NCBI GenBank assembly: GCA_028278205.1
Contig: JANQES010000094.1
Location: 17,995-81,994 of the forward strand
Direction: 5' to 3'
From: Rhodothermales bacterium
GTDB taxonomy: Bacteria; Bacteroidota; Rhodothermia; Rhodothermales; Bin80
DNA: 64,000 bases
The notes beneath the pieces were generated by a model, which had not been told where the DNA came from, searched no databases, and worked only from the letters and a program-made list of their open reading frames with translations. Within the stretch, counting starts at the first letter, position 1; each line of letters opens with the position of its first letter. Below, piece by piece: positions 2 to 18,282 of the stretch. A program made the translations under genes and the position numbers.

Positions 2-1756
2 TTATCGCCTTTTGCCTTCACCTTCTTCCGCCCCTTTCCCGAGGATAAGATTACGCTCCGTCGCCTGCTCGCCTTCGGCCTTCAGGATTGCAAGAAAGAC
101 CTCGTGACCATGCTGGTGATGGGGGTCTTGATCGCGTTGTTGGGCTTGCTCAGCCCCATCGCCACGGGGATGATTTTCAATACCTTCATTCCCGGAGCCC
201 AACGCAGCCAGTTGCTCCAGCTCACGGCCATTCTCATCGTCAGTGCGTTGGCCATCGGTTTTTTTGGACTGGCGCGCAGCCTGGCCATCTTGCGCATTAA
301 CGGGAAGTTGGGCACCAACGTGCAAACGGCGTTGTGGGATCGGCTGCTGCGCCTGCCCGTGTCCTTTTTCAAGGATTACACAGCGGGCGACCTCGCTATG
401 CGGGCCATGGGCATAAGCCAGATCCAGCGCTTGATGTCCGGCGTGGTGATCACCACGATCCTGGCGGCCCTCTTTTCCGTGTTCGACATCACCCTGCTCT
501 TTGTCTACAGCCCGCCGCTGGCGCTGTGGGCCATCCTGCTGGTGGGTATCGCCGTGGCGATTACCTTCGGGCTGACGTATTCCCAACTCCGTTTTCAACG
601 CGCCATTTCGGCGTTACGGACGAGGCTGTCGGGTCTGGTGCTCCAGTTTCTGACGGGCATCTCGAAGCTGCGCGTAGCCGGGGCTGAAGCCAAGGCCTTC
701 AAGCAATGGGCTGAACACTTCAGCAAACAGCGCAGCTTGCAGTATAAAGCCCATGTGACCGGCAACTGGACGATCATCTTCAATAATGTATTTCCCGTCG
801 CCGCGTCGATGCTCATCTATTATCAGGCGCTTATGCAAGTGACCGAGGGCGGCTCTTTGCTCACCGGCGACTTCCTGGCCTTCAATGCCGCCTTTACGAA
901 GTTTCTCTTTGCCATGGTGGCTACCAACGGGGCCTTGCAGGCCATCCTGGTGAGCATCCCCGTTTACGAAAACGCCCGGCCCATCCTGGAGACGCTGCCC
1001 GAAGTAAACCTCTCCAAGGCCAACCCCGGCGTGTTGCGCGGCGAGATAGAAATGCAACACGTGGCCTTCCGGTATACCCCGGACGGCCCGCTGATCCTCA
1101 AAGAGGTATCGATGCATATCGAGCCGGGGGCGTTTGTGGCCTTCGTGGGCACCTCCGGCTCGGGCAAATCCACGACGCTCCGCTTGCTCCTGGGCTTTGA
1201 GACCCCGGAATCCGGCTCCATCTTCTATGACGGGCAGGATCTGGCCGGGCTCGACATCCAGGAGGTGCGCCGGCAAATCGGGGTTGTGCTGCAAGACGGC
1301 AAACTCCTGCCGGGCGACATCTTCACCAACATCATCGGCTCGTCGCTGGCTACGATAGACGATGCCTGGGCGGCAGCCCGCATGGCCGGCTTCGACGAGG
1401 ACATCAAGCAAATGCCCATGGGGATGCACACCGTCATCAGCGCCGGTGGCAGCACCCTTTCGGGCGGGCAGCGCCAGCGCTTGATGATTGCGCGCGCCCT
1501 GGTCAACAAACCCCGTATCCTCTTCTTCGACGAGGCCACCAGCGCGCTCGACAACCGGACCCAGGCCATCGTCAGCGAAAGCCTGGAACGCTTGCAAGCC
1601 ACCCGCATCGTCATTGCCCACCGCCTCAGCACCATCATAAACGCCGATCACATCTTCGTGATGGATGCCGGATACGTCGTTGAGCAGGGGTCTTACGACG
1701 AGTTGATGGCGCTCGACGGGATCTTTGCCGAACTCGCCAAACGACAGATTGCCTAA
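2..1756 (+). CDS. ABC exporter, fused permease/ATPase, 5-prime partial (bacteriocin/NHLM-type exporter candidate)
   Basis: The frame is open from nt 2, so the gene runs off the left edge. Type-1 exporter TM region, then Walker A GTSGSGKST, signature LSGGQRQR, Walker B ILFFDEATSALD, H-loop IAHRL. Confidence 0.9.
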   Translation, partial: LSPFAFTFFRPFPEDKITLRRLLAFGLQDCKKDLVTMLVMGVLIALLGLLSPIATGMIFNTFIPGAQRSQLLQLTAILIVSALAIGFFGLARSLAILRINGKLGTNVQTALWDRLLRLPVSFFKDYTAGDLAMRAMGISQIQRLMSGVVITTILAALFSVFDITLLFVYSPPLALWAILLVGIAVAITFGLTYSQLRFQRAISALRTRLSGLVLQFLTGISKLRVAGAEAKAFKQWAEHFSKQRSLQYKAHVTGNWTIIFNNVFPVAASMLIYYQALMQVTEGGSLLTGDFLAFNAAFTKFLFAMVATNGALQAILVSIPVYENARPILETLPEVNLSKANPGVLRGEIEMQHVAFRYTPDGPLILKEVSMHIEPGAFVAFVGTSGSGKSTTLRLLLGFETPESGSIFYDGQDLAGLDIQEVRRQIGVVLQDGKLLPGDIFTNIIGSSLATIDDAWAAARMAGFDEDIKQMPMGMHTVISAGGSTLSGGQRQRLMIARALVNKPRILFFDEATSALDNRTQAIVSESLERLQATRIVIAHRLSTIINADHIFVMDAGYVVEQGSYDELMALDGIFAELAKRQIA

Positions 1757-3129: not shown

Positions 3130-4299
3130 ATGAACAACCATCAGGCCTTCAGAGCGGACGTGTTGCGCCGATGCGGGGCGACCGAAGCCGAAATCGAAGA
3201 ATTGCTTCGGTATAACCAGAACGTGTTCGACCATAGCCAGGCCTGTCCCGGGTTCCCCCTGGAGGACGAACCGTTTGTTGAAACCTGGGCGCAGTATGCC
3301 GAAGCCTCCGAGCACGACGGCGTCTTCTCCACGCTCAAAGAGCAACTCATCCAACTTCAGTTTCCCATTCAGGAAGGGATCAGCCAGAGCGATGCCTATC
3401 AGACCGCCATTCGCCGGGGGCAGCTTAATGGGCACGCCGGGCAGCATCCGGAGCTGGAACTGGTCGCCCCCGACGCCCTCCGCCTGATGCTCTATCCGAC
3501 ACCAGCCGGGCGCATTCCTGTTTTGATCACCACCGAACGGTCCGATTTTGTGCGCCTCGTGCAGGCCCTCACGCGGCGCAACGAACCCCAGGTCGTTCCG
3601 CCTTCGATGGGGGCGTGCATGGTGGCCGGGTATAACAACTGGGGGCGTATCCGCGCGCTCCGCCTGGCATGGACTGCCAAACATCCCGGAGCAACCGAGG
3701 CGGCCTGGAAGCAGGCTTTCCGGCGTATCATCCCCCAAAAAGCCCTGTACCAGGATCGCTTCATCCTCCTGAGCGACGGCCCCTACAGCGCCGTACCCGC
3801 TGCGTCTCTGGGGCTGACCGACGCCCAGTGGCGCTCCTGCTCGCTGGCGATTCGGCTCGAACACGAGTGTGCCCATTACTTCACCCGGCGGGTGTTGGGA
3901 TCGATGCGCAATGCCTTGTTCGACGAGGTGTTGGCCGATTATATGGGGCTGGTCGTTGCCGTCGGACGTTTCCGTGCCGATTGGTTCTTGCGCTTCATGG
4001 GCCTGGAACGGTTTCCGCACTACCGAGAAGGCGGACGCCTGCAGAACTATCGGGGCAAACCGCCTCTTTCGGATCGCGCCTTTGAGCTTTTGCAAACCCT
4101 CGTATACCACGCTGCCGAAAACCTCGAACGCTTCGACGCGCGCCGAACCCTGGATTTGAGTATGACCCAGCAAAAAGCCTGGCTTCTGTGGGCCATCTCG
4201 CAACTAACCCTGGAACAGTTGGCGGCAGAGAACGGCGCTACCGCCATCGAGCAAACAGTGGCGGACGCGGTCAGGATGTATCAGGACGTTGTCGTGTAA
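3130..4299 (+). CDS. Hypothetical protein with HExxH motif (possible metallopeptidase)
   Basis: 389-aa ORF with normal coding composition. Contains LEHECAHYF (HExxH). I do not recognise the family. Confidence 0.55.
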   Translation: MNNHQAFRADVLRRCGATEAEIEELLRYNQNVFDHSQACPGFPLEDEPFVETWAQYAEASEHDGVFSTLKEQLIQLQFPIQEGISQSDAYQTAIRRGQLNGHAGQHPELELVAPDALRLMLYPTPAGRIPVLITTERSDFVRLVQALTRRNEPQVVPPSMGACMVAGYNNWGRIRALRLAWTAKHPGATEAAWKQAFRRIIPQKALYQDRFILLSDGPYSAVPAASLGLTDAQWRSCSLAIRLEHECAHYFTRRVLGSMRNALFDEVLADYMGLVVAVGRFRADWFLRFMGLERFPHYREGGRLQNYRGKPPLSDRAFELLQTLVYHAAENLERFDARRTLDLSMTQQKAWLLWAISQLTLEQLAAENGATAIEQTVADAVRMYQDVVV

Positions 4300-6787: not shown

Positions 6788-7111
6788 CTAATTGCTCCAA
6801 TCGCCCAGATCGCAGGCATCGCATGCAGGACAAGGTGAGCCGCCTGCGGCCTGCTCCAGGTCTGCCTCGCTCAACTCCTCCCCTGCCGAGACCGGAGCCG
6901 GCAACGCCGCCGCATAATCGTACCCCTGCGCGTCGAAAAACCTGATCGTGAAGCTCTCGGGCACGGCCACGCCCGTCTCCTGGCGGATGGCTGCGTGCGG
7001 ATCCTTCAGCGCCAGGGCGCGGAATTCGGGGTCGCTCGCCGCCCGATGAAGCACTGCTTCGATGGCGGCCTGGTGATCCTGTCCGGGCCGTTCGACTGAG
7101 TATCTGCTCAT
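6788..7111 (-). CDS. RiPP precursor peptide with NHLP-type (nitrile hydratase-like) leader and Cys/Asp-rich core
   Basis: 107 aa. Leader AASDPEFRALALKDPHAAIRQETGVAVPESFTIRFF...EELSEADLEQAAGG, then core SPCPACDACDLGDWSN. AGGAGG lies 7 nt upstream. The ATG overlaps the TGA of the upstream rSAM gene (ATGA). Confidence 0.8.
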   Translation of the reverse strand: MSRYSVERPGQDHQAAIEAVLHRAASDPEFRALALKDPHAAIRQETGVAVPESFTIRFFDAQGYDYAAALPAPVSAGEELSEADLEQAAGGSPCPACDACDLGDWSN

Positions 7112-7135
7112 GATGTACCTCCTTGTTTGAGTGAC
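7070..7135. repeat. Direct repeat copy 1 (rSAM 3-prime end plus precursor 5-prime end)
   Basis: See 6656-6721. The two copies are 414 bp apart. Confidence 0.85.
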
Positions 7136-8622
7136 TGGTGCTTTCGCCAACCGAGGTGATGCCGGTCGAAGTCGTTGAGGTTGTCGTCGATCATGATGCC
7201 GAGTTCCACCGCGCGCCTGAGTTCCTGGCACCAGCGATCATCCGGCTCGTGCATCGATCCGTGCTCTTCTAGGCTCATGTGAAAGCAGCCGCCGCCGCAG
7301 AAATACCGCGCCCAACACGCGCTACACTTGGGATGCGACAGGCCGTAGTTCTCGAAGTAGGGTTGACGCCGGGTCAGGTCGAAGCCTTCGTTGACGTTAC
7401 CGAGCTTCATGTCTTCCTGCCCCACAAAGCGGTGGCACGGATACACATCGCCGGTGTTGGAAATGCTCATGTAGCTTCGACCGGCGCCGCAGAAATACAG
7501 CTTTCTATTCTTCGTCCAAAGCCGCTTCAAAATGTCGTTGAACCGAGAGGAATAGACGGGGCGGCGTGTTTTGATCAGGTTGATCGTCTCCCGGGCTATC
7601 TGCTCCAGGCTGTTTAAGATTTTCTGCAAATGTACCTGCTTGAGATGCGAGTCGGGCTGCTGGAGCATCACTACATCCGCCCGATGATACGTGGGGCGAT
7701 CCGTGAGCACGGGCAGCGCCTGGAACAGGTCGTCCTCCTCCACGACGCCGGCAGCGACAGCCTCATCAGCGGGCACCTCCTCCAGATTAGGCATCGCGAC
7801 GGTGGTCAACTGAACCGCTTTGAAGCCGATCTCAAGCAGCGCGCGTTGCACCTTTTCCAAATCGGCATTGTAGCCGGTGATCGTAGCGCGCCCGCTGGCC
7901 CGTCCGTCTCTTGAGTCAAGAAAACGTTCTACCCTGGCCTTGATATCTTCGTAGGACCCTTTACCTCCTTTGAAGGGCCGGTTTTTATTCTGCATCTCGG
8001 CATCGCCATCATAGCTGACGACGACGCCGAAGTCGTGTTCGTTGAGGTAGTCAATCGTCTCCTCATTAAATCTGGTCCCGTTGGTCGTTATGGTGAAAGC
8101 AATCTTTTTGCCCTTCGTTTCGGCTTTTTCGGTTGCATAGGCCACCACCTCCTTGATCAGTGGGAAATTCAGCAGCGGCTCGCCCCCAAAGAAACAAATC
8201 GTTAACTGCTCAGCGTCTCCTGCATTATCGATCAGGAAGTCAACCGCTTGATAGGCCGTTCCGCCATTCATATACCCTTTGTGGCCGTACTCTCCGCCCA
8301 CGCCGTAGCAGTAAATACAATCGAGGTTGCAAAGCTGCGCCACGTTCAAGGCGATGGTGGCGATGGGCGCCTTTTCAGGATTCGCAAGCTTGACTTGAGG
8401 CAGCGCAGGCGGTGCGTCCAGTCTCAGGTTCAATTGATCGAGCGCCTCCAACAACGCCGGCTCGACCTGCCGGTCATCGAGCACCGGTTGCTCGCCGAGA
8501 TCCCGAACAGCCTTCGCCAACGGCGCACTGATGCGATAGGCCTCCATGTGCTCAACGTGGAACAGATACCACACATCTTCAAGCGCGAAGGTATGATGCT
8601 CGGCCAGATAAAAGACGGACAT
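7108..8622 (-). CDS. Radical SAM / SPASM-domain peptide maturase
   Basis: CNLDCIYCY (CxxxCxxC) near aa 98. C-terminal auxiliary-cluster cysteines CGAG...YPCH...HPKCSACWARYFCGGGCFH. Confidence 0.9.
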   Translation of the reverse strand: MSVFYLAEHHTFALEDVWYLFHVEHMEAYRISAPLAKAVRDLGEQPVLDDRQVEPALLEALDQLNLRLDAPPALPQVKLANPEKAPIATIALNVAQLCNLDCIYCYGVGGEYGHKGYMNGGTAYQAVDFLIDNAGDAEQLTICFFGGEPLLNFPLIKEVVAYATEKAETKGKKIAFTITTNGTRFNEETIDYLNEHDFGVVVSYDGDAEMQNKNRPFKGGKGSYEDIKARVERFLDSRDGRASGRATITGYNADLEKVQRALLEIGFKAVQLTTVAMPNLEEVPADEAVAAGVVEEDDLFQALPVLTDRPTYHRADVVMLQQPDSHLKQVHLQKILNSLEQIARETINLIKTRRPVYSSRFNDILKRLWTKNRKLYFCGAGRSYMSISNTGDVYPCHRFVGQEDMKLGNVNEGFDLTRRQPYFENYGLSHPKCSACWARYFCGGGCFHMSLEEHGSMHEPDDRWCQELRRAVELGIMIDDNLNDFDRHHLGWRKHQSLKQGGTS

Positions 8623-8805: not shown

Positions 8806-8965
8806 GTTCCCTCCCTTCGTATTCCGCAGGGCTGTTAAGTGCTCTGAAAATGGTCGTTCGGCAACACCAACCAGTTTCCCCTCCTTTCGCAGGAGGGGAA
8901 CTTGAGATACCACGCCGAAGAGAACTTAACAGCCCTGCCCGCAGACGGGAACCAGGAGGGGAACT
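8806..8965. repeat. Nested inverted-repeat structure upstream of the rSAM operon
   Basis: Perfect 15-bp pair 8826-8840 / 8924-8938 encloses a 9-bp hairpin 8876-8884 / 8892-8900. An outer pair lies near 8806-8815 / 8956-8965. A direct repeat of about 49 bp sits at 8891-8939 and 8954-9003. Confidence 0.75.
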
Positions 8966-9319: not shown

Positions 9320-10219
9320 TCAGATCGTAAAAGGCTTCTCGGCGTCGAAGCTTAAATGGTCCGGCCCGATCACGTAGTGGTTGGGCTGTTGCTTTTCAGG
9401 CATCTTCGCGATGATCTCCTGGTAAAACGCCTCATAGTCCCCCTCGAAAGCTCCCTCGCCCCACACCTCTAACAGCGTAGCCGTAAACCGGCCATGGGGG
9501 ATGCTCGGGTGTTCCATGGAGTACTGGTCGTCCTGGCAGCCCGATATCAGCCGCACCCTGGCGTGCAACGACGAGGGGTTCTCCGGCAGGGCTTGCTGGA
9601 TGGCTACGTAGAACGGCGAGTTGTTCGTAAACGTCCGCACCGCTTCGGCGGGGGGCATGAACCGGCCCGCCGGCACTTCGCCTTCCGGCGCGTCGGGGTC
9701 TTTGGTTATCGTGCCGCTGTGGCAGCTGTCCGAGAGCACCAGCACACGCACGCCCTCGGCAAACTCGGCCCATAGCTCGTGCAGTTCGTCGTCGAGGATC
9801 TGGCCGTCGTAGAGGCACCAGGTCTCATCGATGTCGTCCTCCTCGTCGTCGTAGCCCTCTTCGTCGGGCACGGTGCCGCCATGGCCGGCGTAGGTGAGCA
9901 AGAAGCAATCGCCTGTTTTGAGCGAGCGGGCCGCGCTGCGGATGCCCTGGATCACGCCCTCACGCGTGGCAAAGTCGGACAAGAGCACGCTCGACCGGAA
10001 GCCTTGTGCGCTGGCAAGCCCGCGGAGCGCTTCGGCATCGGCATGGCAGTTGGGCAGGTAGCCGTCCCAGCCGCTGTAGTGATCGGGGTCCAACCAGTTG
10101 ACCCCGATGTGGAGGGCCAGGCCTTTGGGCCTGGCATCTGCGGGTTGCGCCTCGGCTTGTGCCGCCGGGGCATCGCTTAATTCCTGGGGCACTTGACGGC
10201 CCGTATCAGGTCCAGCCAT
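9320..10219 (-). CDS. Caspase-fold peptidase (C14 family)
   Basis: His/Cys dyad motifs LTYAGHGG and VLSDSCHSG. 299 aa with a low-complexity N-terminus MAGPDTGRQV. Confidence 0.85.
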   Translation of the reverse strand: MAGPDTGRQVPQELSDAPAAQAEAQPADARPKGLALHIGVNWLDPDHYSGWDGYLPNCHADAEALRGLASAQGFRSSVLLSDFATREGVIQGIRSAARSLKTGDCFLLTYAGHGGTVPDEEGYDDEEDDIDETWCLYDGQILDDELHELWAEFAEGVRVLVLSDSCHSGTITKDPDAPEGEVPAGRFMPPAEAVRTFTNNSPFYVAIQQALPENPSSLHARVRLISGCQDDQYSMEHPSIPHGRFTATLLEVWGEGAFEGDYEAFYQEIIAKMPEKQQPNHYVIGPDHLSFDAEKPFTI

Positions 10220-10286
10220 GAGTCTATTCGTTTTTGGGTGTGAAGGATGGAAGTCATAACGCGTGCGTTGACACCCGGCGCGTCGC

Positions 10287-13200
10287 TCAGGCGGACAGGG
10301 CCGGAGCCCAGGTTACAGGCAGCGCGCCGAGGGTTTGGAGGCCGGCCTCCGAAGAGAAGTAATTCAGGTGATGACACACCACGTCGAGCGTCTGCGGGGC
10401 CGGCTGCCGGACGCCGCCCACAGCCCCGATGCTCCGGCTGCTCACTGCGATGTCGTTGGGCTCGTCGTCGTACACGATACCCCCGACACCCACCGTGGCC
10501 TTTTCCAGCAGCCGCTTAAACCCGCCGCCTTGCACCTCGTAGTCGGTGATGTCTCCGGCGAGGATCGTGTAGGGAATGCCGGGGTCGTCGCTGCTGTTGA
10601 GGGTATTCAAGAACGTAGAGCCGGGGGTCATCTGGCCCAGCGTGACGGTCACCTCTTCGGCCCCTTTCAGGACGTTGAGCACGGTGCCGGCAAAGGGGAT
10701 CTGCTTCGTGATAAAGTTGATCGACAGGTTGAGCGCCGTGGAGACGAACTTCCGGTATTGTTCGATGGTGCCGAACTTGCTGCCGCCGTTGGGCGTGCCG
10801 GCCAGGATCAGGTGATCGACCACCTTGTTGCCCTCCTCCTGCTCGATGAACCAGCGGGAGACCAGCCCGCCCATCGAGTGAGCCAGGATGGTGAGATGCT
10901 TGCCGTCGTCTTCTGTGAGCCCGGCCAGGGCCAGCTCGCGCTTCAACGTCTGGGCGGTCTCTTCGATGGGAGTGTTGAGGTTTTCGTAGTCGTAGGTCAG
11001 CATCAGATCGAAACGGTCTTTGAGGCTCCGGCCCTCGGCGTCGCGGGCGTGGGGCAGTCCGGCGGCTATCGATTCGGTGTCGCCGATGATGCCGTGGATC
11101 GCCAGCAGGATGGTGTCGGCGGCGGCGACCTTTTCGTTCAGGCTCTCGCTGCGGCGTTCGACGCTGCCGTCTTCCTGGAAGTCCGCCCAGCAGAGCTTAT
11201 TGATGCGGTCGGTCTCTTGCTTGAGCGCCACCTTGAAGAAAGCCATCTTGAGCGCCTTGAACAGGCTCCGGTCCTGCGGTTCCTCGCCGAAGGGATTGAC
11301 GGCCTGCCCGCCGTCGGTGAGTACCGGCTCGACGTCGGGCAAGGCGCGGATGCGGACGACGGTTTCACCCTCTTCGACCGCGGAATCGCCGATGACGACG
11401 AAGTTTTGCCCGTCGAAGGCGATGGGCAGCAGCATCGCGTCGTTGTCGTCCGCGCCGGGCAGGACGATTTCGAGCGGGTCGTCGAAGAGCGCCGCCGGAT
11501 CGTCGATCTCCAGGTTGCTGAGTTCCACCACGTTCTGCGCGCCGAGATCGCGGTGGCTGCTGAAGTTCATCATCTGGAAGGCCGGGTCGTCGAAGAGCGC
11601 GAAGCGGTTGGCCGGGTCGGTGCTGCGCGTGCCGGTCTGGGCCGCGCCGAGGTTGACTTTTGCGCGGACGCCGGCGTGCGGCCGGATGCGCAACGCGCCG
11701 CCGGCCAGGCTCACCTCGTTGGCGGCCTGGACCTCATCGACCTGCCGGACCATCGTCACCCGGATCGTCCGGCTGGCCCAGGCATCGAAGACCTTTTGCG
11801 GGGCAAACGCGCCGAACGTCGCCCGCGACCCGCCCAGGCCGTCCTGGAGAAGCTGGATGTAGTCCAACTCTTCGGTCGTGACGAACAGCTTGAAATAGAC
11901 GGTGGCCTCTTGCTCGTCTTCGTTGAGGCCCCACCCCATAATGCCATCCGGCATCCCCTTCATCAGCGGGAATATGGCCTGGCCCTCGTGTTCGCCGGGC
12001 CTGAAGACGATCTCGCCCTCGTCGCACTGGATGCTGTAGTCGTTGTTGAGCAGCAGTAGATAGAAATAAAGCTCCTGCGTGGCGCTGGTCTTGACGACAG
12101 GCTTGAAGCCCATCAAGTCGGCCTTCGCGTCCGCATTCCAGAACGTGTTCTCCTTGGAAGCATACAGCTTGATCTCCGGCCCGGTGAAGGTGCCCTGAGA
12201 CACCGGCCCTCTATCACCTGCCTCGAAAACCTCCACGTCGAAGTCGAACATATTCTCGATCCGCGAATCAGGGTTTTCCAACGCCACCGTCCGCTCCCAG
12301 CGCGCAATGCGGCCCAGGCTTTGGAGGATGAGTTGGGCTAATTTGGCCGTGTACGCACCCTGGTCAGGCCCCTCTTCGAGGTGTTCCTGATGGATTTTCC
12401 GCCTGCTTTCCACGTCGCGGATGATGAACGCGCCGTCTTGCGCTTCTACTTCCACCTCCGGCTGCTCGTCGCCGTCGCGGGTCTCTACGTAGAGGACGTT
12501 TTTCGAGCGGTCCCAGTGTTCTTTGAGCAGGTCCACACCCGCCACGTCGCCGTGAATCCAGACGTATTTGGGCGGTGCGGGTAAATGATGGAGGACGCCT
12601 TGATAGGTCTTCTTGGGTTCCAACGCGGCGTCCGCCGGTAGCGCGAGCGGGCTGCGCTGCGCACCGACACGGGTGATGGTGGCCTGGGCGACGACTTGCT
12701 TGTCGGGTGCCGGCCCCCGGACTTCGACTTCGAGGGGTTTCTCCGCCTGCGTAGGCAGGCCGTGGATGGCGCCGCACTTGACGTACCAGGCGTCGCTGCC
12801 CGCGTCGTGGTAGACCTCGTAGGTGTCCGGGTCGCCCAGGGGCTCGCCGCTCAGGAAGCGGGTGTAGGGGTTGAAGCTGCCGATGGTCTCGAACTGCGGC
12901 GTCTGGTTCTTGCCGATCCGTTTGGCCGAAGCGCGGGTGCGGACGAAGAGGTCGGCGTAGTTGATGGCGCCGTTGGCGCTGCCCAGCGCGCGCATCAGGC
13001 TGCTGGTGAAGATGCCGCCGAAGGGCTTGTCGCCCGCCTTCTGGACGCTCTCGCAGGCCGAAAACAGGACGTGTTTGGACAGGGGGACGTGCAGCGCCTC
13101 GCCCTGCCGGGCATAGTAGCCGTCGAGATACGAAGCCAGGGGCCGCGCGTCGCCGCCACGAGCCGGGACGTTGCGCGTCCGGAACAGCGGATCGTCGCCG

Positions 13201-13682
13201 AGGTCGCGGGTGCCGGAGCCGGAGTGGCAGCAATCCAGCGAGACGACCAGGTGCGGCCCCGACGCCTTCTCGGAACCATCGGGAAACTGCGTCTCCACCT
13301 CGTGCAGCAGGGCGGCCAGTTCTTTGTCGGCCAGGTGGAGGCCGTCGGGGCGGCTGTCGAAGCAAACCAGCGTCTGGTCTTTGCCGTTGGGTTCTAGCTT
13401 GAGGAATTCCTCGGCGGTGGGTTCTTCGGAACCGTGGCCGCTGAAATGAAAGAAGGCCACGTCGTCCGCGCCGGCCCGGCACAGGTGCTCGCGGAAGCCT
13501 TTGACGAGGTTGGCGTAGGTGGCATTTTCGTTTTCGAGCCGGTGGATGAAAAGCTCGCCCTCGCCGAACTGACCGCGGAGGAATTTTTCAACCTTGTCGA
13601 TGTCGAAGATGCAACCGTTGAGCGTAGAGACGGGCGCCGGGTAGGTGTTGATGCCGACGAGGAAAGCGTATAGGCGTTTCAT
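10287..13682 (-). CDS. Caspase-fold peptidase fused to a C-terminal alpha/beta-hydrolase (lipase/esterase-like) domain
   Basis: ATG at 13682 (MKRLYAFLVGINTY). FHFSGHGS and SLDCCHSGSG dyad at the N-terminus. C-terminus has LAIHGIIGD, nucleophile elbow ILAHSMGGLV, and LAGTPNGGS. About 550 aa of unassigned middle region. Confidence 0.85.
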   Translation of the reverse strand: MKRLYAFLVGINTYPAPVSTLNGCIFDIDKVEKFLRGQFGEGELFIHRLENENATYANLVKGFREHLCRAGADDVAFFHFSGHGSEEPTAEEFLKLEPNGKDQTLVCFDSRPDGLHLADKELAALLHEVETQFPDGSEKASGPHLVVSLDCCHSGSGTRDLGDDPLFRTRNVPARGGDARPLASYLDGYYARQGEALHVPLSKHVLFSACESVQKAGDKPFGGIFTSSLMRALGSANGAINYADLFVRTRASAKRIGKNQTPQFETIGSFNPYTRFLSGEPLGDPDTYEVYHDAGSDAWYVKCGAIHGLPTQAEKPLEVEVRGPAPDKQVVAQATITRVGAQRSPLALPADAALEPKKTYQGVLHHLPAPPKYVWIHGDVAGVDLLKEHWDRSKNVLYVETRDGDEQPEVEVEAQDGAFIIRDVESRRKIHQEHLEEGPDQGAYTAKLAQLILQSLGRIARWERTVALENPDSRIENMFDFDVEVFEAGDRGPVSQGTFTGPEIKLYASKENTFWNADAKADLMGFKPVVKTSATQELYFYLLLLNNDYSIQCDEGEIVFRPGEHEGQAIFPLMKGMPDGIMGWGLNEDEQEATVYFKLFVTTEELDYIQLLQDGLGGSRATFGAFAPQKVFDAWASRTIRVTMVRQVDEVQAANEVSLAGGALRIRPHAGVRAKVNLGAAQTGTRSTDPANRFALFDDPAFQMMNFSSHRDLGAQNVVELSNLEIDDPAALFDDPLEIVLPGADDNDAMLLPIAFDGQNFVVIGDSAVEEGETVVRIRALPDVEPVLTDGGQAVNPFGEEPQDRSLFKALKMAFFKVALKQETDRINKLCWADFQEDGSVERRSESLNEKVAAADTILLAIHGIIGDTESIAAGLPHARDAEGRSLKDRFDLMLTYDYENLNTPIEETAQTLKRELALAGLTEDDGKHLTILAHSMGGLVSRWFIEQEEGNKVVDHLILAGTPNGGSKFGTIEQYRKFVSTALNLSINFITKQIPFAGTVLNVLKGAEEVTVTLGQMTPGSTFLNTLNSSDDPGIPYTILAGDITDYEVQGGGFKRLLEKATVGVGGIVYDDEPNDIAVSSRSIGAVGGVRQPAPQTLDVVCHHLNYFSSEAGLQTLGALPVTWAPALSA

Positions 13683-13841
13683 GATAATTCGTTGTAGGTT
13701 GGTTAAAGAATAAATCCCGTCGAGGAAGGGCTGTGCAATGAACACAGGTTGGAGCCGCGCCCGGCCTGTCACAGTCGCGCTTTACCTATCTATGCCTAAA
13801 ACAGCACGGAATTTTTCATACCCTCGAAAAAAAGAGGGCAC
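13683..13841 (-). promoter_or_regulatory. Promoter/5-prime-UTR module copy A (upstream of the caspase-lipase gene)
   Basis: Alignable along its whole length, up to the ATG, with 21509-21670. Conserved core GAGGGYATGAAAAATTCCGYRCTGTTTTAGGCATRGATAGGTAAAG. Possible TTCCGY-N17-TAGGTA promoter. Confidence 0.55.
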
Positions 13842-13878
13842 TTGCATGGAGGTCTTCGTATTGCGTTCAGAAAGGCAC

Positions 13879-15315
13879 CTACGACAACACTTCGACGCCT
13901 GGAAGCAAGTCTTCCAAAATGGCAAACCGTACGCGTGTGCGTTCCTGGCTTTCGTCGTTATTCGAAATCAGGCCGCGCCGTACCTGCTTTTTGACCCTTT
14001 TCAGCGTTGCCTGGTGCGAGGTAACGTCATTATAGAGGTCCTCGTCTCTATCCTTCAGACCGGTTTCAAGCAAGTCGAGCGCCTGTTCGAGTTTATCCGA
14101 GGCGACGAGTTGCCGGATCTCTTCGACGGCGTCCTGCTTTCCAGGGCTGGGCATTGTGCTTGAGGGCCGGCGTGCGGAGGGTTGGGGTGCGCGGGACGGG
14201 GTCAGTTGCGGCGCGAAGAGGGTGCCGTCGGGCGAGCGCATAAACAGCACGGGTGTGGCCCATTCTACGGAGTCGTCCAGGCAGATCGCCACGCGGCCCT
14301 CGGCCACGGCCTCATCCACCGAAACGCCGAGCGCCAGTTGTCTATAGATCTCTCCGGCAAACGTGATCGCGGCGGTGTCGGTGATGGGAAACTGCATCGC
14401 CACCACCGCCGGGATGCCTTCCATCACCAGCGCCGAGGCCACCCCCGCGAACGGGTCGAGGTGGTCGGTTTTGGTGCTCTGGGCCGTCTGACACGCATTC
14501 AAGAAGACCAGGCGCACGCCGGTGCCGCGCAGCGCAACCCGGAGCTGATCCCCGCTCACCTTCAACTGACAACCCTGCTCATCCTCCATCAACAAGACCC
14601 CCTCTCCGGTGTTCGCGTCGAAGGTGCCGTGGCCCGAATAGTGCAAGACGTGAAACGGCTGCGCTTTGAGCCGGGCGCGTAAGGCTTGCAACGTGGTGCC
14701 CTGGACGACCTCGACTGCGACGTGCTGCGTATCCTGCCAGCTCGCTTCGATCTTTTGTCGCTCTGCCTCCAGGTTGAGCGCGTCGGTGCCGGGCGGGTTG
14801 GCCAGCACCACGAGGATGCGCAGTGGCGGCGCGAACGGCGGCGGATCTTCGGGGCGCATCACGTCGAGGTAGCGCACGACCGGGGTCTGGCTGTTGAGGT
14901 TCAGGTATTCGTTCTTCTCCGGGTCGTAGAGGAGTTCCCAGGGGAGGTTCGCCAGGAGAGCATGGTCCGGCTGGTTCAGGTCGAGGTGGAGCTTGATGCG
15001 CAGCCCACCTTTGCCGTAGACCCGGCCTCGGCTCTCGGAGAACGCCGTGCCCACCGGCCCGGTGAACAGCGCCTCGAAGAGCCGGGTGCCTACCGCGCGC
15101 GGCGAGAGATCCTGGGTGAAGATCGGCGCAAACGTGCCGCGATACCGCCCCAGCGCAGCCAGGACGCCCTCGGCTTCGCCGGGCGCGTAGGGAAGCTGGA
15201 GCGGTGAGGTGGACGTTTGGCCGGCGGGAGACTGTATAACCTGGACGGTGAAGCGCCCTTCGGCCTGGGCCTCCATCTGAATGGAGAAGTCTTCGTAGCG
15301 GATCATGGTGTTCAT
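13879..15315 (-). CDS. CHAT-domain protease with C-terminal helical adaptor-like (EAD-like) module
   Basis: LPWELLYD, HVLHYSGHG and LVFLNACQT (CHAT His/Cys). The last 85 aa align with the C-terminus of the SIR2-like protein. Confidence 0.85.
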   Translation of the reverse strand: MNTMIRYEDFSIQMEAQAEGRFTVQVIQSPAGQTSTSPLQLPYAPGEAEGVLAALGRYRGTFAPIFTQDLSPRAVGTRLFEALFTGPVGTAFSESRGRVYGKGGLRIKLHLDLNQPDHALLANLPWELLYDPEKNEYLNLNSQTPVVRYLDVMRPEDPPPFAPPLRILVVLANPPGTDALNLEAERQKIEASWQDTQHVAVEVVQGTTLQALRARLKAQPFHVLHYSGHGTFDANTGEGVLLMEDEQGCQLKVSGDQLRVALRGTGVRLVFLNACQTAQSTKTDHLDPFAGVASALVMEGIPAVVAMQFPITDTAAITFAGEIYRQLALGVSVDEAVAEGRVAICLDDSVEWATPVLFMRSPDGTLFAPQLTPSRAPQPSARRPSSTMPSPGKQDAVEEIRQLVASDKLEQALDLLETGLKDRDEDLYNDVTSHQATLKRVKKQVRRGLISNNDESQERTRVRFAILEDLLPGVEVLS

Positions 15316-15349
15316 GAGGACTGGGGTAAGGGGCTCTTCTATTGGGGAT

Positions 15350-17197
15350 TCACTGGCTGGCCGTTAACTGCTCGGTGGATTGCCCGGAGGCTTCCTTTAG
15401 CACTGAATTGAGGCTATCCTTTATCGAGCGCAAGCGTTCGATTTCTTTCTTCTTAACCTCCACGAGGCTGTCATTCCTGGCTTGCTCATAGATGATAACA
15501 TCTTGTTCTAATCCTTTAATTTTCAGATTTTTTTCTTCAATCTTTAAGGCCATGATACTATCTGCTGCATCCTTAACGAGGCCGCCTTCCTCAGCTTGCC
15601 GATAGATGATGGTGTCTTGTACTAATACGCCAATACTTGTTTTGATTTCGCCAATCTGTGCACCTAAGGATGCCTGCAAATGCTCTCTAGCCATTTGATA
15701 GTTCTCCTCAGCTTCTTGTGTCGCTCGTTTGGCAGAATTGTAATAGAAGCCGACGAACACCAGCGCGATTAAGGCGATGCCAGCTAAGATATAGGCGAGG
15801 CGGCGTCCCTGGACGGCTTTAACCCGAAGCGCAGCTTCCTCCTTCGCTTTGGCCAGGGCCTCCTCGGCCCGTCGCTCAGCTTCGCGGCGTTCAGCTTCCG
15901 CTTGCCTGTGCAGGGCTTCCTGTTCGCGGCGTCGTTCTTCGGCCTGGCGGGCGTGTTTGGCCTCCAGGATGGGCTCCACCAGCGTATCGTGGCTCAACTC
16001 GTAGGTGTAGCCGCCGCTCATGTTGGGCTCGGCCCGCAGCAGGTGGTGTTTGTTGACCAGCAAGCTCAGGATCTCATCGGAGATCCCTTTACCGTGGATG
16101 ATGCCTTCGTAGAGCGAGATCCGCCGCTTGTCCGGCTCGAAGATCAGGTCTTCCTCGATCAGCTTGCGCACGGTGAGGCGTTCCTCATCGGTGGGTATCT
16201 CGTCCAGCATGGCGTCGTAGTAGCGCCGGTAGATCCGGCTGAGGTCGCCCAGGTCGTCGGGGCGAACCTGGGGGATGCCGGCCTGATTTCGCTGCCTGAC
16301 GGCGCCGTCCTCAACCAGGTGTTCGGCGTGCTGGCAGATGATCTGGAGCTGGGTGGTCTCGATGGTAGCCTGGCCGCCGCCGGAGAGAAAATTGAGGATG
16401 AAATCGAGCGCCTCATCGGTGTAGTCGAAGCGCTGGACGGCAAAGTCGGAGTCGTTGTGATAGGCCGGGTTGAGGATGGCGTCTTCGGCTTGAAGACGGG
16501 TCAGCGGTTTGAGTTGATAGGTTTTGTGGAGGATATCCGGCAGGTGGTCTTTGAGTTCGTCGAGGAAGCTCATGCGGTCGGAGCGGATGGCGAAGACCAC
16601 TTTGAGGTTGAGCGGCTGGAAGAGGGCTTCCTGTTCGGCGGCGTCGAGGGTTACGGCCTGGCGTTCGAGCACCGCGCGGACGGGCTTGGGGATCCGTTCG
16701 TAGAGCGCCTGGGCCAGTTGGGCGGCAAAGGCCTTAATCTGAGCCGGAGGGTAGGTGAAGAGCTCTTCGAACTGATCCAGAATCAGCAGCAGGGGCTGAT
16801 CGGGGTGAAGGCCCTGCACCGACTTCAGGGCTTGCCAGAGCGGAACCGCTTCGCCGAAGCGGCCGGTCCAGTCGCCGGCCCGGCCCAGGGCGCGGAGGCG
16901 TTCCAACACGTTTTGCAGGGGCGTGTGTGCATCGCCGGCCTCGGTGTAGCTGCCGAAGCGGAGCGGCACGGCAAAGACCCCGGCGCGCCCGCCTTCACGA
17001 GATTCTTGCAGCCGGGGGACCACAGCGGCATTGAGCAGCGAGCTTTTGCCGAGGCCGGATTTGGCATAGAGTACCACCATCTGCTCCAGCCTGATCTTTT
17101 CGACCAGGCGGCGGGTGTCTTCTTCGCGCCCGTAGAAGATACGGCGGTCGTTCGGGGTAAAGGGCTGGGCGCCGGGATAACGATAAGCTGTGCTCAT
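15350..17197 (-). CDS. STAND-type P-loop NTPase (nSTAND-like) with coiled coil, one TM helix and a C-terminal tail
   Basis: YPGAQPF..IFYGREEDT, Walker A AKSGLGKSS, Walker B LLLILDQFEELF, FAIRSD. Then a charged coiled coil, the TM helix LAYILAGIALIALVFVGFYY, and a 129-aa AT-richer tail. Confidence 0.85.
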   Translation of the reverse strand: MSTAYRYPGAQPFTPNDRRIFYGREEDTRRLVEKIRLEQMVVLYAKSGLGKSSLLNAAVVPRLQESREGGRAGVFAVPLRFGSYTEAGDAHTPLQNVLERLRALGRAGDWTGRFGEAVPLWQALKSVQGLHPDQPLLLILDQFEELFTYPPAQIKAFAAQLAQALYERIPKPVRAVLERQAVTLDAAEQEALFQPLNLKVVFAIRSDRMSFLDELKDHLPDILHKTYQLKPLTRLQAEDAILNPAYHNDSDFAVQRFDYTDEALDFILNFLSGGGQATIETTQLQIICQHAEHLVEDGAVRQRNQAGIPQVRPDDLGDLSRIYRRYYDAMLDEIPTDEERLTVRKLIEEDLIFEPDKRRISLYEGIIHGKGISDEILSLLVNKHHLLRAEPNMSGGYTYELSHDTLVEPILEAKHARQAEERRREQEALHRQAEAERREAERRAEEALAKAKEEAALRVKAVQGRRLAYILAGIALIALVFVGFYYNSAKRATQEAEENYQMAREHLQASLGAQIGEIKTSIGVLVQDTIIYRQAEEGGLVKDAADSIMALKIEEKNLKIKGLEQDVIIYEQARNDSLVEVKKKEIERLRSIKDSLNSVLKEASGQSTEQLTASQ

Positions 17198-18282
17198 ACC
17201 AGTTCCTCGTTAAGACTCAGTAGATTAAATCGTAGCTTGGCGCGTGAGGCAGAAGCTTCCTCTTCCGTGACGATACCCTGCCGCTCCTTACGCTTCTGGC
17301 GCGAGAGCCGGCCACTGAGACTGATCGCCTCGTCGAGGAATTCGTCCTCGCCGATGTCTTCGAAGTGATCGGTCAAGAAGGCCAGCGCATCTTCCAGGCG
17401 ATCCTGCTCCACCATTTGCTTGACCCGCTCGGAGGGTCCGGCTCCCGCTGCCGGGTCGGGCCGGAGCAGGCCGGCGGCGGCGCATTGCGTGTGCAGTTGG
17501 TCTATGAACGCCCGCACGCCTTCCTGGTCGCGGATGATGCGGATGTCGAACTCGCCATCGAGCACATTCATCACCGCCTGGTCTACCTCGGTCTGCTCCG
17601 GCACCCAGGTGTAGGCCACGTGGCTGTCGTTGATGCTCCGGATGAGCCGTAGCAAGAGTTGCACGTACCACTTCTCGAACTGAAAGCCCAGGAAGACAAA
17701 GTAGCGCGCCCGTTGCAACGCAGCCTTGAGACTGGAGCCAAGCTCGCGAGCCCCGAGGATCGATTTGATGTATTCGAAGAGGTCAGCGTGGGTGAGGATC
17801 AGCGATTCCTCGTCTTCGATGCAGCCGAAGAGGTCGTAGAGCAGCGGCCGGTCGGCGGTGGGGGCGTCCATCTCCGCCCCGCAGCGCTTCATATGATAGA
17901 ACCCATAGTTGAACAGATAGGGGATCTCCAGGCGGGGAAAGGTCTGCCTGGGATTGAGGTAGGGAGAGAAGGAAAGCAGCAAGTGCAGTTGTATCGAGGC
18001 CAGCTTACGCAAGAGATCCGGCACGAGGGGATGTTTTTTCAACTGGTCTTTGAGCGTGAAGTAGCTCTCGTTCTGGGCCGAGCGTTTGCCGAAGAGGAAG
18101 AGTTCGTCGTGCTTGTAGTAGGCCAGCAGGTTGCGCTCGTGCTCCTGCCGGATCGTTTCCATCAGGTACGGATGCAGCGGGCGACTCTCGCCGTCTACAT
18201 CGATCTCCAGCATGTTCGGCCCCAGGAGGACAACGCATTTGTCCTCTCGGATGGCTTGAAGAAGGTGGTCCCAGTTAATCAT
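17194..18282 (-). CDS. SIR2_2-like (divergent) domain protein with C-terminal helical adaptor-like module
   Basis: Motif order resembles the SIR2_2 family (VVLLGPNM, LLLSFSPY, LLYDLFGC, LILTHADLFEY, FVFLGFQFEKW), but the expected catalytic positions look substituted. Its TGA overlaps the NTPase ATG. Confidence 0.6.
   Translation of the reverse strand: MINWDHLLQAIREDKCVVLLGPNMLEIDVDGESRPLHPYLMETIRQEHERNLLAYYKHDELFLFGKRSAQNESYFTLKDQLKKHPLVPDLLRKLASIQLHLLLSFSPYLNPRQTFPRLEIPYLFNYGFYHMKRCGAEMDAPTADRPLLYDLFGCIEDEESLILTHADLFEYIKSILGARELGSSLKAALQRARYFVFLGFQFEKWYVQLLLRLIRSINDSHVAYTWVPEQTEVDQAVMNVLDGEFDIRIIRDQEGVRAFIDQLHTQCAAAGLLRPDPAAGAGPSERVKQMVEQDRLEDALAFLTDHFEDIGEDEFLDEAISLSGRLSRQKRKERQGIVTEEEASASRAKLRFNLLSLNEELV

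Follow-up and report, generated by a model that had tools for sequence, protein, structure and literature searches.

The window is the whole stretch of DNA analysed, 64,000 nucleotides (nt) of contig JANQES010000094.1 (assembly GCA_028278205.1, positions 17,995 to 81,994 of the forward strand) from a Rhodothermales bacterium. Two adjoining genes on its minus strand, between positions 8622 and 6788, are described here. They encode a radical S-adenosylmethionine (SAM)/SPASM enzyme and a precursor peptide with a leader of the nitrile hydratase-like leader peptide (NHLP) type. The gene pair is a real, intact and rare locus for a peptide that is made on the ribosome and modified after translation (RiPP). 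It is probably a two-gene module in which the enzyme installs three Cys-Asp thioethers, of the ranthipeptide type.

Gene pair and NHLP-type leader

The features of the pair are as follows.

8622..7108, minus strand: gene of the radical SAM/SPASM maturase, 504 amino acids (aa)
7111..6788, minus strand: open reading frame (ORF) of the precursor, 107 aa, MSRYSVERPGQDHQAAIEAVLHRAASDPEFRALALKDPHAAIRQETGVAVPESFTIRFFDAQGYDYAAALPAPVSAGEELSEADLEQAAGG followed by SPCPACDACDLGDWSN; 91-aa leader and 16-aa core
6839..7111, minus strand: leader, residues 1-91, NHLP-type, with the terminal double-glycine motif ELSEADLEQAAGG
6791..6838, minus strand: core peptide SPCPACDACDLGDWSN, with overlapping Cys-x3-Asp pairs C3-D7, C6-D10 and C9-D13
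7123-7118, minus strand: Shine-Dalgarno sequence AGGAGG, six bases ahead of the precursor ATG, within the 3' end of the enzyme gene; read directly

The precursor stop codon lies at 6788-6790. The TGA of the enzyme gene (7110-7108) overlaps the ATG of the precursor (7111-7109), giving ATGA at 7111-7108. In the sister locus L001 the enzyme gene and the first precursor are 81 nt apart; the start/stop overlap is thus not general. The leader/core junction reads ...ELSEADLEQAAGG/SPC, with Leu in positions -7 and -12 and Ala in -4. The enzyme carries the cluster motif CNLDCIYC (C98-x3-C102-x2-C105). Its SPASM cysteines are C378-x12-G-x4-C396, C433-x2-C-x5-C-x3-C446 (CSACWARYFCGGGC; C433/436/442/446) and C465. 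Asp stands at +4 of C3, C6 and C9 of the core (D7/D10/D13); when the 16 residues were shuffled in 20,000 trials, all three Cys had Asp at +4 in 0.08% (mean 0.45). The precursor, the core, the CX3D positions, the ATGA overlap, CNLDCIYC, the SPASM cysteines and AGGAGG had been reported in a first-pass annotation of this DNA, and each was found again when the sequence was re-read.

The same annotation described the leader as NHLP-type, ending in double glycine. This description holds. The leader matches the NCBIfam model TIGR03793 over its full length (profile positions 6-77 of 77) with an expectation value (E) of 6.4e-11, but its score of 42.0 bits does not reach the cut-off of 50.9. With a profile made from the precursor and its closest relatives, the matches are PDB 9cjx ('NHLP leader peptide family natural product', E 3e-24), PDB 8tb1 (1e-13) and alpha chains of nitrile hydratase (4.5e-11). 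The precursor matches TIGR01323 at E 2.9e-4 and PF02979 with 25.0 bits (cut-off 27.2). Its AlphaFold 2 (AF2) model is poor (predicted local distance difference test score, pLDDT, 57.6), and the top fold-search match, again 9cjx, is suggestive only (E 0.09). Because of the profile matches to 9cjx and nitrile hydratase alpha, homology of the precursor to the NHLP family is regarded as secure, though its sequence is an outlier.

The precursor subfamily is rare. A word-indexed search of 5.8 billion proteins yielded 4 sequences. When 1.84 billion cluster representatives were searched exhaustively with HMMER, 1 representative came up at E <= 1e-30, 147 at <= 1e-10 and 1669 at <= 1e-3, the latter covering the wider NHLP family. 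A metagenome scan with precursor patterns gave no related match.

Outside the Cys/Asp group, the nearest NHLP leaders (P0139, P0143, P0172) precede Cys-free cores rich in x-Tyr-Gly, e.g. DDTYGGGGG. These cores recall the Xaa-Tyr-Gly motif of spliceotide substrates. They show that this leader subtype serves other enzymes too.

The maturase and its relatives

The enzyme has the Pfam domains Radical_SAM, Fer4_12 and SPASM. PF04055 (53.8 bits, cut-off 29.5), PF13186 (29.0, cut-off 21.5) and TIGR04085 (65.9, cut-off 27) are all passed. Its four best family scores are listed below.

rSAM_nif11 (TIGR04064): 380.6 bits, cut-off 518.7
PapB family (NF047865): 306.8 bits, cut-off 340
QhpD: 281.9 bits, cut-off 453
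SCIFF maturase (TIGR03974): 277.2 bits, cut-off 425

The next NCBIfam matches are not_ScfB (228.8 bits) and CcpM (189.7 bits). A sharp drop follows, and the remaining families reach at most 120 bits. The anaerobic sulfatase maturase model TIGR03942 scores 102.5 bits (cut-off 349.45), the RumMC sactisynthase 96.9 bits and sactisynthase models in general below 100 bits; epimerase models are absent from the best 25 of 68 NCBIfam matches. Readings of the enzyme as an epimerase, an anaerobic sulfatase maturase or a sactisynthase were set aside on these scores. The first-pass annotation had kept an epimerase and a sactionine synthase as alternatives, which are not supported here, and had named clustering with anaerobic sulfatase maturases as a sign of a non-peptide enzyme, a clustering that TIGR03942 does not indicate. 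By family score, the enzyme groups with QhpD, PapB and CteB (277-381 bits) and not with the sactisynthases (<= 97 bits).

The best PDB sequence match is CteB (5wgg), E 1e-55. The AF2 model of the enzyme (pLDDT 80.7) also has CteB 5wgg as the top Foldseek match, over the full length, at E 2e-29 and a template modelling score (TM) of 0.81. The match includes the N-terminal domain (residues 1-65), built of beta-strands plus helices and of the RiPP recognition element (RRE) type. SkfB fits poorly (TM 0.43); the epimerase EpeE ranks 44th or lower. Ten cluster-binding Cys, three of the radical SAM motif and seven of SPASM, are invariant in 15 homologues. With the domain models passed and CteB as the best relative, the earlier assignment to the radical SAM/SPASM enzymes stands.

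Homologues of the enzyme, 40-91% identical, group into one clade by neighbour joining, every one of them from a metagenome or metagenome-assembled genome and without an informative name. The sister group of this clade includes the bona fide TIGR04064 members L009 (565.6 bits) and L018 (615.1 bits) and other NHLP-linked enzymes. The controls, a PapB-family enzyme (L015, Paenibacillus ottowii, 434.2 bits) and a SCIFF maturase (L034, 590.3 bits), lie outside. Clade members score 370-395 bits on TIGR04064 and 270-322 on PapB. Because of this tree position and the clade-wide family scores, the enzyme is assigned, on sequence, to a lineage without a name within the thioether-forming CteB/PapB/QhpD/rSAM_nif11 group. 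By curated thresholds it is outside the PapB and TIGR04064 equivalog families.

A stretch of roughly 40-50 residues (~280-320) is disordered in the model (pLDDT <50). It belongs to a variable insert of ~40-90 residues (enzyme ~277-330) between the radical SAM core and SPASM, present in the NHLP-paired enzymes of the clade (window, P0005, P0006-P0008, P0013) and lacking in the short-leader-paired enzymes P0015 and P0017. P0010 and P0012, from outside the set of loci that were read, have the insert as well. A link between the insert and recognition of the large leader is possible, but the correlation is confounded by phylogeny.

Cys-Asp pairing and predicted product

Fifteen cores were compared, from the window and from seven independent loci with enzymes 40-91% identical. 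The cores outside the window are as follows.

L001: NSCPACDTCDLGDVGNIS; CALCDLGDIGSKY; FDCGACDMDVSL
L003: ...DCTVDDNCGQDN...; ...FCSIDFD...NCGVDIN...
L004: AASWCGIDCGVADIGVAE
L005: five cores, e.g. ...QCNGDNNCISDK..., ...VCAVDGVCGYDT...
L086: ...VCGNDVCVGDN...
L087: CAPDTCTLVDYSDNCGLTADTCGIDY, short leader
L088: CTYIDYSSSCEEVDRCGVDFT, short leader

Asp follows at +3 or +4 for 30/32 Cys. Shuffling within cores gives a mean of 9.0, and 0/20,000 shuffles reach 30. When the window and the near-identical sister locus are excluded, the count is 20/22 (expected 6.1). The pattern is directional: in a set with one core more (34 Cys), Asp is the most frequent residue at +3 (19/34) and +4 (15/34) but not in the reverse direction, where it occurs in 4/27 at -3 and 3/25 at -4. 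Cys never outnumber Asp in any core. The motif is independent of leader type, being present with NHLP leaders and with the short leaders of L087 and L088. The sister core NSCPACDTCDLGDVGNIS retains all six Cys/Asp residues. Beyond the clade, a Nif11-leader core beside the true TIGR04064 enzyme of L009 has CLFAD/CLLD, and L013 (500.1 bits, slightly below 518.7) encodes CFID. C-x2-3-D occurs also in more distant loci, L006 (Bacteroidales), L053 (Thermococcus) and L014 (deltaproteobacterial).

This clade-wide pattern is what a cross-link with Cys as donor and Asp as acceptor predicts. It supports Cys-S to Asp-Cβ thioethers as the probable modification, over epimerisation or sactionine formation. 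In the literature read, the Cys thioethers of PapB, QhpD and CteB are all non-alpha, and PapB and QhpD join Cys to Asp; the pattern agrees with the chemistry reported for PapB (Cys-S to Asp C-beta in CX3D, with CX0-6D tolerated) and for QhpD. The CX3D thioether chemistry proposed in the first-pass annotation is supported in its main line: the nearest characterised relatives make Cys thioethers and Cys-x2-3-Asp is strongly conserved. By the curated threshold the enzyme is not of the PapB family (306.8 vs 340 bits). Because spacing in the clade is not fixed, the connectivity of the compact CxxCDxCDxxD core is a prediction.

Several NHLP precursors of the enzyme clade (L005, 8451-10124; L086, 10435-10764) have cores that open with (D/E)AW(I/L)(D/E) ahead of C-x2-D pairs. 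This motif is absent from the window core.

The predicted route is as follows. The 107-aa precursor would be translated with its structured NHLP-type leader, which the enzyme would bind through the N-terminal RRE-like domain. Cleavage of SAM at the C98/C102/C105 cluster would give a 5'-deoxyadenosyl radical, which would abstract hydrogen from the C-beta of a core Asp. The sulfur of the Cys four residues upstream would be joined to the Asp C-beta; to judge by CteB and PapB, this Cys would be bound at the first auxiliary Fe-S cluster in the 7-Cys SPASM domain. Three rounds would link C3-D7, C6-D10 and C9-D13. The product would have, in a stretch of 11 residues, three overlapping thioether rings of five residues each, and a mass 6.05 Da below that of the linear core. 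A C39-peptidase ATP-binding cassette (ABC) exporter would cut after GG and secrete the 16-mer. We infer the S-C-beta bond type, the connectivity and the exporter that serves the peptide in this genome.

Mechanical interlocking is not expected of the predicted rings, which would be fused or overlapping. Particular to the window core are three chained motifs (CxxCDxCDxxD), in which ring 2 overlaps rings 1 and 3 within 11 residues. Interlocked rather than serial rings had been taken to set this core apart from freyrasin. That contrast is withdrawn, the overlapping CxxCDxxD being found also in PapA and in the PapB-family locus L015 (434.2 bits vs 340), which encodes CVLCDTHDRCVNCDATD. According to PMC9413430, some CX3D links of PapA are in-line and others 'nested'; the PapA topology is taken here from that paper and from L015.

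Freyrasin (PapA/PapB of Paenibacillus polymyxa, six Cys-S to Asp-C-beta links) likewise has a radical SAM/SPASM enzyme as sole core maturase. Cys-x3-Asp with Cys N-terminal to Asp and overlapping CxxCDxxD are common to both. The window enzyme is ~31% identical to a PapB-family enzyme, falls below the NF047865 cut-off and has the ~40-50-residue disordered insert. The window leader is a 91-aa NHLP domain with GG, whereas PapB substrates in vitro carry an 18-residue leader segment. The window core has 3 motifs chained in 11 residues, PapA six. Export appears to be of the peptidase-containing ABC transporter (PCAT) type.

The best model match is to the 'nif11-like peptide radical SAM maturase' systems of TIGR04064. 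These are predicted systems: in 2011 a radical SAM enzyme was proposed as the only maturase of NHLP/Nif11 precursors (Haft 2011, PMC3023750). In common are a sole radical SAM/SPASM maturase beside NHLP/Nif11-leader precursors with GG, and C-x2-3-D at L009 and L013. The window enzyme differs in its score (380.6 < 518.7) and in its separate sister clade, at 34-39% identity. CteB/thermocellin and the SCIFF maturases (5wgg) have the same fold, with RRE-like N-terminal domain, radical SAM barrel and 7-Cys SPASM; CteB, however, joins Cys to Thr C-gamma on SCIFF precursors, and TIGR03974 reaches only 277 vs 425 bits. QhpD/QhpC, of quinohemoprotein amine dehydrogenase maturation, is a related radical SAM/SPASM system with Cys-S to Asp C-beta or Glu C-gamma thioethers (281.9 bits, below 453); its substrate is an enzyme subunit and not a secreted leader-bearing peptide. 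Proteusins (PoyA/PoyD, polytheonamides) have the NHLP leader in common; PoyD, however, is a radical SAM epimerase, and the best 25 of 68 matches of the window enzyme hold no such model.

The locus is thus an uncharacterised, rare relative of a known bacterial cyclic-peptide class and not a new system type. No characterised NHLP- or Nif11-led Cys-Asp ranthipeptide was found in the literature searched, subscription papers being outside its coverage. It is tentatively suggested, at somewhat less than even expectation, that the product would be the first characterised NHLP-led ranthipeptide, a 16-mer rigid tricyclic 'ladder' from a clade distinct from PapB and TIGR04064, and that the insert could be a novel element for leader recognition and the DUF7005 protein, a recurrent neighbour of the clade, a novel RiPP peptidase. 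If the thioether assignment is true, the peptide is a very compact, genetically encoded, disulfide-free tricyclic scaffold. The enzyme would then represent a second natural lineage of Cys-to-Asp stapling besides PapB, acting on large structured NHLP leaders. It would be useful for peptide engineering, in which PapB is already exploited, and for annotation of the many rSAM_nif11-like loci that are still uncharacterised. The understanding of RiPP biosynthesis would be unchanged and specialists would not be surprised; the pair is a good target for heterologous expression.

Alternative readings and genomic context

The following features lie around the gene pair.

2..1756, plus strand: NHLP-type bacteriocin export ABC transporter permease/ATPase (ABC2), TIGR03797 802.9 vs 709.4; cut by the window start, frame open to base 2; candidate exporter partner
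3130-4299, plus strand: DUF7005 protein, Pfam 516 bits
4320..5564, plus strand: cytochrome P450, PF00067 114 bits; 83% nucleotide identity to L001
5913..6596, plus strand: LuxR/NarL-type response regulator, Response_reg and GerE; convergent with the precursor; 89% nucleotide identity to L001
6656..6720, minus strand: relic of what was a second precursor gene in tandem; direct repeat of 7070-7134 (65 nt, 95%), with ribosome-binding site and first 14 codons (MSRYSVERPGQDHQ)
9320-18282, minus strand: conflict-system-type genes; caspase (299 aa), caspase with DUF7379 (1161 aa), CHAT-EAD11, nSTAND1 NTPase, SIR2-EAD11

Several points weigh against three Cys-Asp thioethers as the product of this locus. 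The enzyme misses every equivalog cut-off, function is transferred over ~31% identity, and no characterised member of the enzyme clade or of TIGR04064 was found in the searchable literature. S-C-beta and S-C-alpha bonds are inseparable by sequence alone. Spacing is variable in the clade: most of the distant members have C-x2-D, and the sister core FDCGACDMDVSL mixes an x3 pair with an x2 pair. The P450 might bring a further modification outside the prediction. The second-precursor relic marks some erosion of the locus. No C39 ABC or HlyD was identified with family libraries among the genes of the first 10 kb of the window and ten large ORFs beyond. The window ABC2 protein is only 50% identical to the ABC2 of the sister locus L090 (6429-9353), whereas the sister enzyme is 89% identical.

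Thioethers of other connectivity or number are an unlikely outcome, though the best placed of the alternatives. The links would then be C6-D7 with C9-D10, C3-D10 or C6-D13, or one or two only, owing to mutual hindrance of the rings. PapB tolerates CX0D to CX6D in vitro (PMC9413430), and CX0D and CX6D are exactly the alternative pairings available in CxxCDxxD. Clade members mostly use C-x2-D, and three consecutively overlapping motifs have no characterised example. On nested CxxCDxxD substrates, however, PapB prefers CX3D to CX0D or CX6D (PMC9413430), and Asp at exactly +4 of all three Cys is kept in the sister core NSCPACDTCDLGD.

Sactionine links (Cys-S to C-alpha) to Asp or neighbouring residues would make the product a sactipeptide and not a ranthipeptide. 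This is rather improbable. The SPASM architecture is common to both classes, regiochemistry is unreadable from the sequence, and CteB and the SCIFF maturases were themselves first assigned as sactisynthases (title of PDB 5wgg). The scores of RumMC and PapB (96.9 vs 306.8 bits) and the SkfB fold match (TM 0.43) nevertheless point away from it. Conservation of Asp at a fixed offset fits the acceptor preference of PapB and QhpD, and in the literature read all re-examined members of the CteB/PapB/QhpD group are non-alpha.

Comparable in its low probability is a decaying or silent remnant, parted from its dedicated exporter and yielding no product in the organism. In sister locus L090 the order is cNMP-binding protein, outer-membrane-like protein, HlyD, C39-peptidase ABC, ABC2, enzyme and three precursors. 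L001 overlaps the L090 contig and continues into the response regulator and the P450. Both sister loci have three intact tandem precursors. In the window only one is intact: the relic loses similarity after 14 codons and a stop follows, and this truncation speaks for decay. So does the end of sister homology at window base 8826, past which the HlyD/C39-ABC/ABC2 block is replaced by the caspase / CHAT-EAD11 / nSTAND1 / SIR2-EAD11 island; a sigma-70-like promoter was not detected. Against decay, neither ORF is broken, the ribosome-binding site is strong, no catalytic Cys is missing, and an identical enzyme sequence was recovered from an independent sequencing run. Nucleotide identity between window and sister is 83% for the P450, 89% for the regulator, 79% for the precursors and 89% for the enzyme, the last value including the 204 nt upstream of the gene. 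An NHLP-type ABC2 gene lies 5 kb away. Since the sister block is replaced and this ABC2 is only 50% identical, a leader peptidase and a dedicated exporter are presumed for the window. The window ABC2 may be a paralogue, or the enzyme-precursor block may have moved. GC content across 1-20 kb (0.53-0.66) gives no compositional sign of recent transfer.

Non-thioether chemistry (proteusin-type epimerisation, C-C or C-O cross-links, or Cys as metal ligands or disulfides) is very improbable: NHLP leaders do serve many enzyme classes and the core has CxxC-like spacing, but the epimerase, cyclophane and ether-forming models fall far below the thioether families, the fold search puts EpeE no higher than 44th, and the co-conservation of Cys and Asp would be left unexplained.

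Three Cys-Asp thioethers remain the preferred product. The order of the genes that follow ABC2 in the window is periplasmic binding protein, DUF7005 protein, P450 and response regulator. The response regulator, kept beside the sister-locus precursors, is a possible regulator of the locus. The P450, which adjoins the response regulator in the sister locus as well, is at most a possible tailoring enzyme of the peptide.

The DUF7005 profile has no PDB relative by sequence, and the family is not mentioned in the searched literature. DUF7005 proteins have an invariant HECxH with a conserved D/E downstream, resembling a zincin-type metalloprotease signature. They occur near clade enzymes also in L004 (1550-2752), L005 (12132-13352) and L086 (11218-12429). 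A GG peptide of the kind that precedes DUF7005 elsewhere is absent from the window. In L004, L005 and L086, DUF7005 directly follows a 64-68-aa GG-leader peptide, and DUF4135 (LanM N-terminal) genes are close by in L004 and L005.

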